Origin: a virus
Lineage: Duplodnaviria; Heunggongvirae; Uroviricota; Caudoviricetes
Length of the DNA: 47,077 nt
Strand: one strand, 5' to 3'
IMG/VR virus record: IMGVR_UViG_2541047907_000002
Span: 1-47,077 of that record
The notes below the pieces were generated by a model, which saw only the letters and a list, made by a program, of their open reading frames with translations, did no database searches and was not told where the DNA came from. This document shows, piece after piece, positions 20,793 through 21,102 of the stretch. The translations under genes and the position numbers were made by a program. The first letter of the stretch is position 1; every line of letters begins with the position of its first letter.

Positions 20793-20868
20793 GGCCCTTT
20801 AGCTCAGTGGTGAGAGCGAGCGACTCATAATCGCCAGGTCGCTGGTTCAAATCCAGCAAGGGCCACCA
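20793..20868 (+). tRNA. tRNA with CAU anticodon, ileX-like (Ile2/lysidine type)
   Basis: Hand-folded cloverleaf: acceptor GGCCCTT/AAGGGCC, D-stem GCTC/GAGC, anticodon loop CTCATAA, T-loop TTCAAAT, 3' CCA; very similar to E. coli ileX as recalled. Confidence 0.8.
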
Positions 20869-20869
20869 A

Positions 20870-20946
20870 CCGCCACTAGCTCATCAGGAAAGAGCATCAA
20901 CCTTCTAAGTTGACGGCGCGAGGTTCGAGTCCTCGGTGGTGGGCCA
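20870..20946 (+). tRNA. tRNA-Arg (UCU anticodon)
   Basis: Hand-folded: acceptor CCGCCAC/GTGGTGG (one G-U pair), anticodon loop CTTCTAA, T-arm CGAGG-TTCGAGT-CCTCG, 3' CCA; unusual C1 start. Confidence 0.6.
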
Positions 20947-20948
20947 GT

Positions 20949-21024
20949 GCCGACTTAGCTCAGCAGGCAGAGCAACTGACTTGTAATCAGTAGGTCACCA
21001 GTTCGATTCCGGTGGTCGACACCA
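20949..21024 (+). tRNA. tRNA-Thr-like (UGU anticodon), with stem mismatches
   Basis: Hand-folded: anticodon stem ACTGA/TCAGT and loop CTTGTAA are clean, but the acceptor and T stems each carry one mismatch; may be functional or degenerate. Confidence 0.5.
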
Positions 21025-21027
21025 TAT

Positions 21028-21102
21028 GCGGGTATCGTATAATGGCTATTACCTCAGCCTTCCAAGCTGATGATGCGGGTTCGATTCCCGCTACCCGCTC
21101 CA
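21028..21102 (+). tRNA. tRNA-Gly (UCC anticodon)
   Basis: Hand-folded: perfect acceptor GCGGGTA/TACCCGC, anticodon loop CTTCCAA, T-arm GCGGG-TTCGATT-CCCGC, 3' CCA. Confidence 0.75.

Follow-up and report, generated by a model that had tools for sequence, protein, structure and literature searches.

A close described counterpart of the locus considered here is the ileZ-argN-argO cassette of Shiga toxin (Stx) phages. In Stx2a_F349 (AP012530) and in the Stx2k prophage of STEC711 this cassette is encoded on the late strand and is flanked by the antiterminator gene Q on one side and the lysis genes on the other. Clusters of tRNA genes are also carried by T4-like and T5-like lytic phages, where they are likewise tightly packed, derive from a common precursor and are thought to match phage codon use. 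In E. coli prophages, RefSeq already labels arrays of tRNA-Ile, -Arg, -Thr and -Gly (e.g., NZ_CP025856.1); the literature searched contained no relevant paper on ileZ, argN and argO, on the tRNA genes of Stx phages or on an Ile-Arg-Thr-Gly prophage array. This study concerns such an array at positions 20793-21102 of a 47,077-nucleotide (nt) stretch of viral DNA (IMG/VR record IMGVR_UViG_2541047907_000002; the whole stretch is termed the window), which is a lambdoid prophage. The array, pointed out by a first-pass annotation of the sequence, is a genuine and correctly delimited cassette of four tRNA genes (slots 1 to 4) and a new sequence variant of a common, annotated E. coli prophage family. 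Judged by their sequences, three of its members (Ile, Arg, and Gly) look functional; the Thr member is most likely in decay and poorly charged.

The likeness to the Stx cassette, which the first-pass annotation had rightly placed at the equivalent position, extends to an identical ileZ, an argN-type body with the same C1-G72 pair (65/77 identical positions), tight spacing and encoded CCA ends, and in the prophage of STEC711 also to the same AraC-like gene 5′ of ileZ. However, slot 2 has the anticodon UCU in the window and UCG in Stx phages, slot 3 is a thrU-type Thr(UGU) gene instead of argO (UCU, acceptor strand GCGUUGU; 57/77), a fourth gene for Gly(UCC) is added and no stx genes follow, so that the array is not a Stx-type cassette. 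It has instead the attributes of the lambdoid Ile-x-Thr-Gly cassette, namely its slot order, spacers of 1, 2, and 3 nt, 91-96.5% identity over 310 nt and a position between Q or methylase and holin. Slots, order, spacers and position are those of the annotated Ile-Arg-Thr-Gly arrays, from which the window differs in G66 and A71 of the Thr gene, in a unique slot 2 with a G3·U70 pair and in other upstream cargo. For slots 3 and 4 the host thrU-tyrU-glyT-thrT operon (K-12, upstream of tufB) is source-like, including the unusual pairs A52·C62 and U13·U22, yet the window lacks tyrU and thrT and has a 3-nt spacer where the host has 8 nt, tyrU and a further 116 nt. The lytic-phage clusters, by contrast, are larger and of unrelated sequence, and some of their members have demonstrated counter-defence roles; T4-like phages gave weak partial matches to the array.

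The Array and Its Family

ARAGORN calls four tRNA genes in the window, and no more, all on the + strand (Table 1). Membership in the tRNA family was defined as an Rfam RF00005 covariance score above the gathering threshold of 29 bits, which all four genes exceed; since the scores are well over this threshold and the E-values are ≤5e-9, the matches lie far beyond chance. The anticodons CAU, UCU, UGU, and UCC and the gene boundaries proposed by the first-pass annotation were returned by ARAGORN at the same coordinates, in agreement with Rfam, and the array does lie upstream of the lysis genes, about 1.1 kb 5′ of the holins and on the same strand. The structural statements below were checked by Infernal alignment and by an explicit cloverleaf parse, and identities are derived from pairwise comparison. 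CCA is encoded at the 3′ end of each gene, the spacers read A, GT, and TAT, and the G+C content of the array is 55%, vs. 42-45% in the flanks.

A full-length match to the 310-nt array is present in 604 of 5,426 complete E. coli genomes, with identity up to 96.5%, and three deposited Escherichia phages (vB_EcoM-606R7, vB_EcoS-689R5, and PhiR47_1) carry the array at about 95% identity. Because this array type is common in E. coli genomes and annotated in RefSeq, the arrangement is not new; the first-pass description of a different array composition is correct with respect to the Stx Ile-Arg-Arg order, although the type itself is recurrent. For the wider region 15000-27000, matches in complete E. 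coli genomes covered at most 60%, and the exact region was found in draft NCBI assemblies only. The composition of the family was surveyed in 147 ileZ-led arrays from two IMG/VR scans and hand-picked loci, a biased sample in which counts refer to the matches listed. The commonest order is the Stx type CAU-UCG-UCU (59 arrays), followed by CAU-UCU (25), CAU-UUU-UGU-UCC (22), the window's own CAU-UCU-UGU-UCC (8, the window included), CAU-UUU-UUU-UCC (5) and CAU-UCU-UUU-UCC (2). Thr-Gly alone is commoner still, making up 87 of the 123 Thr-Gly junction matches listed (defined below). Slot 2 bears the anticodon UUU ("Lys" form) in 27 of the 37 listed full four-slot arrays with callable anticodons, and among E. 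coli genomes the UCU form was seen in about 18 (at 90-95% identity) vs. about 200 with the "Lys" form. The practical value of these data lies mostly in correct annotation; the window holds a member of a common prophage cassette family and not a novel arrangement.

Three Members That Look Functional

Slot 1 is identical to ileZ of Stx2 phages at all 76 positions and to K-12 ileX at 68/76, so the first-pass remark that it is close to ileX is right, and the phage gene is closer still. With the host Met tRNAs it shares only 54/77 (elongator, metT/metU) and 49/77 (initiator, metZ) positions; since its body matches ileX and ileZ and not the Met tRNAs, it is of the AUA-reading Ile2 type. The label "Met" given by ARAGORN follows from the anticodon alone, whereas the NCBI annotation pipeline (PGAP) annotates homologues of slot 1 as tRNA-Ile. 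In Ile2 tRNAs, TilS converts C34 to lysidine, with C4-G69 and C5-G68 as acceptor determinants, and the cloverleaf parse finds both pairs retained. The gene has a non-canonical A27·C43 pair where ileX has G27·U43, and it is the commonest allele of the family (117/139 sampled copies). Its annotation should therefore read tRNA-Ile2 (ileZ) instead of tRNA-Met.

Slot 2 matches host argU at 59/77, fewer positions than it shares with Stx argN. Its acceptor stem, CCGCCAC/GUGGUGG, contains C1-G72 and a G3·U70 wobble, and every stem is paired, with no non-standard pair. The C1-G72 pair was noted as unusual at first reading; it is present, but since phage argN has the same acceptor pair it is a trait of the whole argN-type lineage and not peculiar to this copy. 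The bacterial tRNA-Arg identity set consists of A20, C35, U/G36, and A/G73 (PMC9976931), and slot 2 has A20 (in the D-loop AUCAGGAAA), C35, U36, and G73. The sequence is unique among those sampled, with a top E. coli match of 94.1%. Its relatives have G3-C70 or A3-U70, for which reason G3·U70 looks like an intermediate of compensatory change; one Stx argN allele also has G3·U70. This wobble is at the same time the hallmark determinant of alanyl-tRNA synthetase. Bacterial Ala identity comprises A73, G2-C71, G3·U70, and G4-C69 (PMC9976931), and of these four acceptor-end determinants slot 2 has G3·U70 alone, the others being C2-G71, C4-G69, and G73, which are not Ala-like.

Slot 4 matches K-12 glyT at 73/75 positions, and its sole change is compensatory (C6-G67 to U6-A67). 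The verdict of the first-pass annotation that this gene is clean is borne out: apart from U13·U22, which host glyT also has, no defect was seen. All bacterial tRNA-Gly determinants (U73, G1-C72, C2-G71, G3-C70, C35, and C36; PMC9976931) are present, the acceptor being GCGGGUA/UACCCGC with U73 and the anticodon UCC, and the allele is the commonest one (23/42 sampled copies).

The Thr Member and Its Acceptor Stem

Slot 3 matches K-12 thrU at 72/76 positions. Mismatches in both the acceptor and the T stem had been reported for it, together with the suggestion that the gene may be decaying or non-canonical; both mismatches exist (C2·A71 and A52·C62), yet they differ in meaning. The T-stem pair A52·C62 is native to host thrU, was seen in all phage copies examined and is not decay, so that the suggestion is reasonable by way of C2·A71 and gains nothing from the T stem. 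The changes that matter relative to thrU are A66G, which turns U7-A66 into U7·G66, and G71A, which turns C2-G71 into C2·A71. Bacterial Thr identity comprises G1-C72, C2-G71, G4-C69, G35, and U36 (PMC9976931); slot 3, with the acceptor GCCGACU/GGUCGAC, has all of these except C2-G71, and host thrU carries G71. The pair U7·G66, like A27·C43 of ileZ and G3·U70 of the Arg tRNA, had gone unmentioned in the first-pass annotation.

The frequency of these two changes was assessed by a scan for the Thr-Gly junction, using a thrU-like/glyT-like pattern in which positions 66 and 71 were left free. The 123 junction matches listed (at least 120 IMG/VR contigs, together with loci of Escherichia ruysiae and Citrobacter braakii and a contig of 423 nt that bears the label Corallococcus) have G71 in 123/123 and A71 in 0/123, and G66 in 1/123. 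Among complete E. coli genomes the junction is present in 836/5,426, none of which has both G66 and A71 (0/836). A71 occurs in one of the 836, strain VTB97432v (locus L134), which is the closest genome and has A66. C2·A71 is thus a rare derived allele common to two related prophages, and the lineage of the window gained a second change on the same strand.

Structure prediction points to a less stable acceptor helix. Plain minimum free energy folding misses the cloverleaf even for host thrU, and so the energy of the imposed cloverleaf was used: slot 3 gives -14.3 kcal/mol vs. -21.5 kcal/mol for thrU and the canonical phage copy, and the predicted probability of the acceptor pairs is about 0.01 in the window, about 0.7 in L134 and about 1.0 in the canonical copy, in calculations that ignore modifications and tertiary contacts. 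Because the threonine identity pair C2-G71 is broken and the acceptor helix is weakened, the gene is probably impaired, and its annotation should carry a flag to that effect.

Two explanations of the acceptor mismatch were rejected. Sequencing error does not account for it, as three NCBI assemblies of independent origin carry exactly the allele of the window, within 6.7 kb of sequence around and including the array that is identical to it (0-1 mismatches); about 20 more similar places were listed. Nor is the mismatch private to the window, since the E. coli prophage L134 shares A71.

Some minor observations belong to this gene and its junction. A near-consensus sigma-70 site, TCGACA-16-TATAAT (11/12), lies at 21016-21043, from the 3′ end of the Thr gene to the D-loop of the Gly gene, and G71A betters its -35 hexamer (TCGGCA to TCGACA); the site, from which transcription would begin within the Gly gene, is probably accidental. 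Outside E. coli, E. ruysiae (L129) has Thr-Gly, and in C. braakii ATCC 51113 (L130) ARAGORN calls the Thr gene alone, the Gly start matching the search pattern. The junction on the 423-nt contig NZ_RAVW01000911.1 (L131, labelled Corallococcus exercitus), a low-coverage contig of a myxobacterial assembly with an enterobacterial Thr-Gly junction, is most likely contamination.

Codon Supply and Alternative Explanations

The first-pass annotation had proposed a comparison of ATA, AGA, ACA, and GGA between phage and host. The host baseline was taken from annotated K-12 genes in two 50-kb regions (25,738 codons) and the window set from open reading frames (ORFs) of ≥100 amino acids (11,839 codons, a crude longest-ORF call); 59 codons were ranked by the ratio of within-family use, window over host. 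All four codons proved enriched, in support of rare-codon supplementation. The ranking begins with AGG (9.1×), ATA (6.1×), AGA (4.6×), and CGG, and continues with GGA (fifth, 3.3×), CGA (sixth) and ACA (seventh, 2.4×), so that the four chosen codons all fall within the top 7/59 (hypergeometric probability about 8e-5). Each of ATA, AGA, ACA, and GGA is the rarest or near-rarest of its own codon family in E. coli. An Arg tRNA with U34 also reads AGG to some extent, and therefore five of the top seven over-used codons are covered by the four tRNAs. Use per 1,000 codons is highest in the cargo block 16024-22014 (ATA 19.6, AGA 11.0, AGG 12.6).

The reading preferred here, to which a probability of about 60% is given, is that the array is a lambdoid late-region cassette supplying tRNAs for codons that the phage over-uses, with a Thr member most likely in decay; it is real but ordinary. 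By its sequence the cassette is a mosaic, in which ileZ and an argN-type body with UCU, both of phage lineage, stand beside two host captures (thrU-like and glyT-like). It would be transcribed within the Q-antiterminated late transcript, and additional transcription into ileZ from the promoter-like site of the AraC-like gene upstream of it may occur, as there is no terminator between the two. Mature tRNAs would then be released from the precursor by RNase P and 3′ exonucleases, a route with which the short spacers (1-3 nt) and the CCA ends present in the genes are consistent, and these tRNAs would read ATA, AGA (AGG weakly), ACA, and GGA. In this way the cassette could relieve a shortage of tRNA supply for phage and cargo genes, given that the decoded codons are rare in the host and enriched in the phage. 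Transcription, processing, charging and benefit are all features that we infer from the sequence. Selection acting on the family is supported by the 604/5,426 full-length arrays, by the 836 Thr-Gly pairs and by the modal alleles in slots 1 and 4.

Several facts weigh against this explanation. The promoters and terminators were called by match to consensus only, and the number of promoter calls in the region, 15, is close to the mean of 11.6 in shuffled sequence. The late-operon placement is mismatched to the highest demand, because enrichment peaks in the early arm and the cargo: ATA reaches 14-20 per 1,000 in the early arm and in the cargo between Q and the lysis genes but is lower in the lysis and morphogenesis genes (ATA 6.3, AGA 3.4 per 1,000), and the putative major capsid ORF (31477-32505) is lowest, with 1.2 of these codons per 100. 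Enrichment is comparable for CGG and CGA, for which the array has no dedicated tRNA, so the enrichment may simply be the general codon bias of AT-rich "foreign DNA". The baseline is limited to 100 kb of K-12 and the window ORFs were crudely called. Finally, at least the Thr member is dispensable, since a prophage lineage in which this gene is probably crippled remains in circulation.

Of the alternatives, the one that survives best, while still unlikely, regards the cassette as a neutral passenger or recombination joint, i.e., one of the short conserved islands at which lambdoid phages swap modules, with little fitness gain and with members free to drift. The similarity of relatives indeed begins or ends right at the tRNA edges: in L001-L004 it starts at 20791-20793, in L134 it starts at 20944, in L001 it stops at 21105, and the Stx2k prophage is near-identical to the window up to the end of ileZ and divergent after it. 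The flanks differ completely from array to array and those upstream are not conserved. Decay is visible across the family, in C2·A71 of the window, in C33, A51·C63, and uncallable anticodons of slot 2, in a slot-2 remnant in L038 and in the L004 copy, which PGAP leaves uncalled. Against this reading, slots 1, 3, and 4 are strongly conserved, with a modal ileZ allele in 117/139; the thrU-type and glyT-type copies retain all their stems and their changes are compensatory, the anticodons fit the most over-used phage codons and the position between Q and lysis is conserved. Such a statement about evolution is, moreover, compatible with function. The cassette illustrates how lambdoid tRNA sets are assembled, from phage-lineage tRNAs and near-exact host copies, with tRNA edges as mosaic joints.

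A further explanation, which seems rather improbable, is that of lysogenic conversion, in which the tRNAs would be made in the lysogen by read-through from the AraC-like gene and would aid translation of AT-rich, horizontally acquired genes of the host or of the cargo instead of that of phage late genes. The 933W ileZ-argN-argO genes have reportedly been proposed to help express virulence genes. In the window, a promoter-like site precedes the AraC-like gene, no terminator was found in the 28 nt between its stop and ileZ, and it is the cargo block that tops the use of ATA, AGA, and AGG; the pairing of an AraC-like gene with ileZ also precedes stx2k in Stx2k prophages. The promoter is, on the other hand, a 10/12 consensus match, and the AraC-like gene is absent from most relatives, which have a methylase or other sequence upstream, so that lysogenic conversion, plausible for the mosaic seen in the window, cannot be the general logic of these cassettes.

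Counter-defence is more doubtful still. It would have the cassette replace host tRNAs destroyed by tRNA-cleaving defence nucleases or by colicins. Colicin D, whose target is tRNA-Arg, is listed among the E. coli tRNA nucleases, and relatives of the array switch slot 2 or 3 to UUU, the commonest nuclease target, sometimes with a C33 loop. Rescue of infection by phage tRNAs is known for PARIS (where it involves tRNA-Lys), for retron effectors and, more generally, for anticodon nucleases (PMC11464382, PMC11555353, PMC10264068), and a bacterial Schlafen nuclease shows minor cleavage of tRNA-Ile(CAU) (PMC13056530). The window itself has no UUU member, though, and in the literature searched neither Thr(UGU) nor Gly(UCC) was described as the specific target of a nuclease. 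The signature proposed for escape is an anticodon loop altered, relative to the host isoacceptor, at positions of nuclease recognition or cleavage (PMC10264068). Escape mutations were accordingly rejected for this array, as its four loops (CUCAUAA, CUUCUAA, CUUGUAA, and CUUCCAA) equal those of host ileX, argU, thrU, and glyT, and the Thr and Gly members match the host over the entire anticodon arm.

Least credible of all is that the cassettes serve as a reservoir in which tRNA bodies are acquiring new decoding identities (argN-type bodies occur with UCG, UCU, or UUU and thrU-type bodies with UGU or UUU across the family), in which case C2·A71 and G3·U70 would be functional variants of identity or charging and not decay, acting as poorly charged nuclease decoys or as mischarging tRNAs.

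Genomic Context

The elements of late control and the neighbouring genes are collected in Table 1.

Table 1. Features of the tRNA array and its surroundings in the window.
Feature	Position	Strand	Evidence or note
Late antiterminator Q	15239..15934	+	Pfam PF06323 Phage_antiter_Q, E = 1.6e-92
Candidate late promoter, pR′-like, overlapping the end of Q	15918..15946	+	sigma-70-like TTGCAA-17-TATATT, consensus match only
Putative intrinsic terminator, tR′-like	15998..16027	+	hairpin AACCCGC...GCGGGTT, then T-run
DNA methylase	16495-17547		
C-terminal remnant of a second Q type	18346-18672		PF03589
TfpB-like membrane protein	18912-19631		PF27470 in identical contigs
Promoter-like site of AraC-like gene	19989-20016		ATGAGA-16-TATAAT, 10/12 consensus
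AraC-family regulator	20052..20765	+	Pfam HTH_AraC, HTH_18
tRNA-Ile2 type (ileZ), anticodon CAU, encoded CCA	20793..20868	+	ARAGORN; Rfam 72.5 bits
tRNA-Arg, anticodon UCU, argN-type body, encoded CCA	20870..20946	+	ARAGORN; Rfam 54.2 bits
tRNA-Thr, anticodon UGU, thrU-derived, probably impaired	20949..21024	+	ARAGORN; Rfam 57.6 bits
tRNA-Gly, anticodon UCC, glyT-derived, intact	21028..21102	+	ARAGORN; Rfam 65.6 bits
First strong terminator-like hairpin 3′ of the array	21449..21476	+	AACCGCCGTATCCGGCGGTT, then TTTTT
Lysis cassette, two holins and glycoside hydrolase family 108 (GH108) endolysin	22208..23469	+	Pfam Phage_holin_8, Glyco_hydro_108, PG_binding_3

The tR′-like terminator follows the candidate late promoter by about 50-70 nt, which is the usual lambdoid late layout, and the cassette lies about 4.9 kb 3′ of Q and of this candidate promoter and terminator, on the same strand as all late genes. 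In every annotated relative it is found after Q (and a DNA methylase) and before the holins. The promoter scan found no dedicated promoter in the 28 nt that separate ileZ from the stop codon of the AraC-like gene, where only the hexamers TTGATT and TATTTT, with a 19-nt spacer, could be read by eye. Two small ORFs separate the tRNA genes from the holins, the middle lysis gene is Phage_holin_3_7 in identical contigs and terminase comes after the lysis cassette.

The region after Q bears marks of repeated rearrangement. The terminator with its downstream module is present in three copies (15998-16080, 18753-18833, and 19651-19988), with 68-83% identity among copies of 63 nt and 83% over a stretch of 170 nt, and the ORF at 19671-20015 is a paralogue of that at 16024-16344. 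Because the terminator module recurs at 18753 and 19651, the 3.2 kb from the methylase to the tRNAs is regarded as inserted mosaic cargo; the repeats, the paralogous ORFs and the Q remnant are scars of repeated module insertion after Q. Homologues of the TfpB-like and AraC-like genes occupy the same place in Stx2k prophages, in which the AraC-like gene is followed by ileZ and then by argN-argO-stx2k. Around slots 3 and 4 there was no trace of the flanks or spacers of the host thrU-tyrU-glyT-thrT operon. Elsewhere in the window, in the early region, Rfam places a C4 antisense RNA at 4987-5074 (-, 80 bits) beside the Hfq-binding RNA isrK at 5099-5175 (-, 65 bits).

Variants in Related Arrays

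The most interesting leads lie in the relatives, namely in anticodon switching on fixed bodies and in the widespread C33 form of slot 2. Most arrays of four tRNA genes have in slot 2 an argN-type body whose anticodon, UUU, lies in a loop CCUUUAA (UCUUUAA in L002); examples are found at 3078-3154 of both L002 and L004 and in about 200 E. coli genomes. This form has C33 in place of the near-universal U33 and usually also an A51·C63 mismatch in the T stem and U73. PGAP names it tRNA-Lys and makes no call in L004. This form may represent a gene in decay or else a Lys tRNA of unusual type that possibly resists nucleases.

A different route to UUU is seen at L003 3157-3232 and in six other arrays among those listed, where a thrU-type body has acquired the anticodon by the single change G35 to U, with A73 kept. 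The gene thereby has the full bacterial Lys identity set (PMC9976931) on a Thr acceptor stem, which looks like a one-step switch of tRNA identity within a prophage cassette. If functional, such anticodon changes on fixed bodies would provide a tractable natural system for tRNA identity switching.

Arrays consisting of Thr-Gly only (L016, L017, L024, L029, and others; 5860-5974 in L134) have on their 5′ side a conserved, AT-rich element about 120 nt long, with TTGAC-type hexamers and a hairpin ending a few bases 5′ of the Thr gene, which may be a dedicated promoter or leader.

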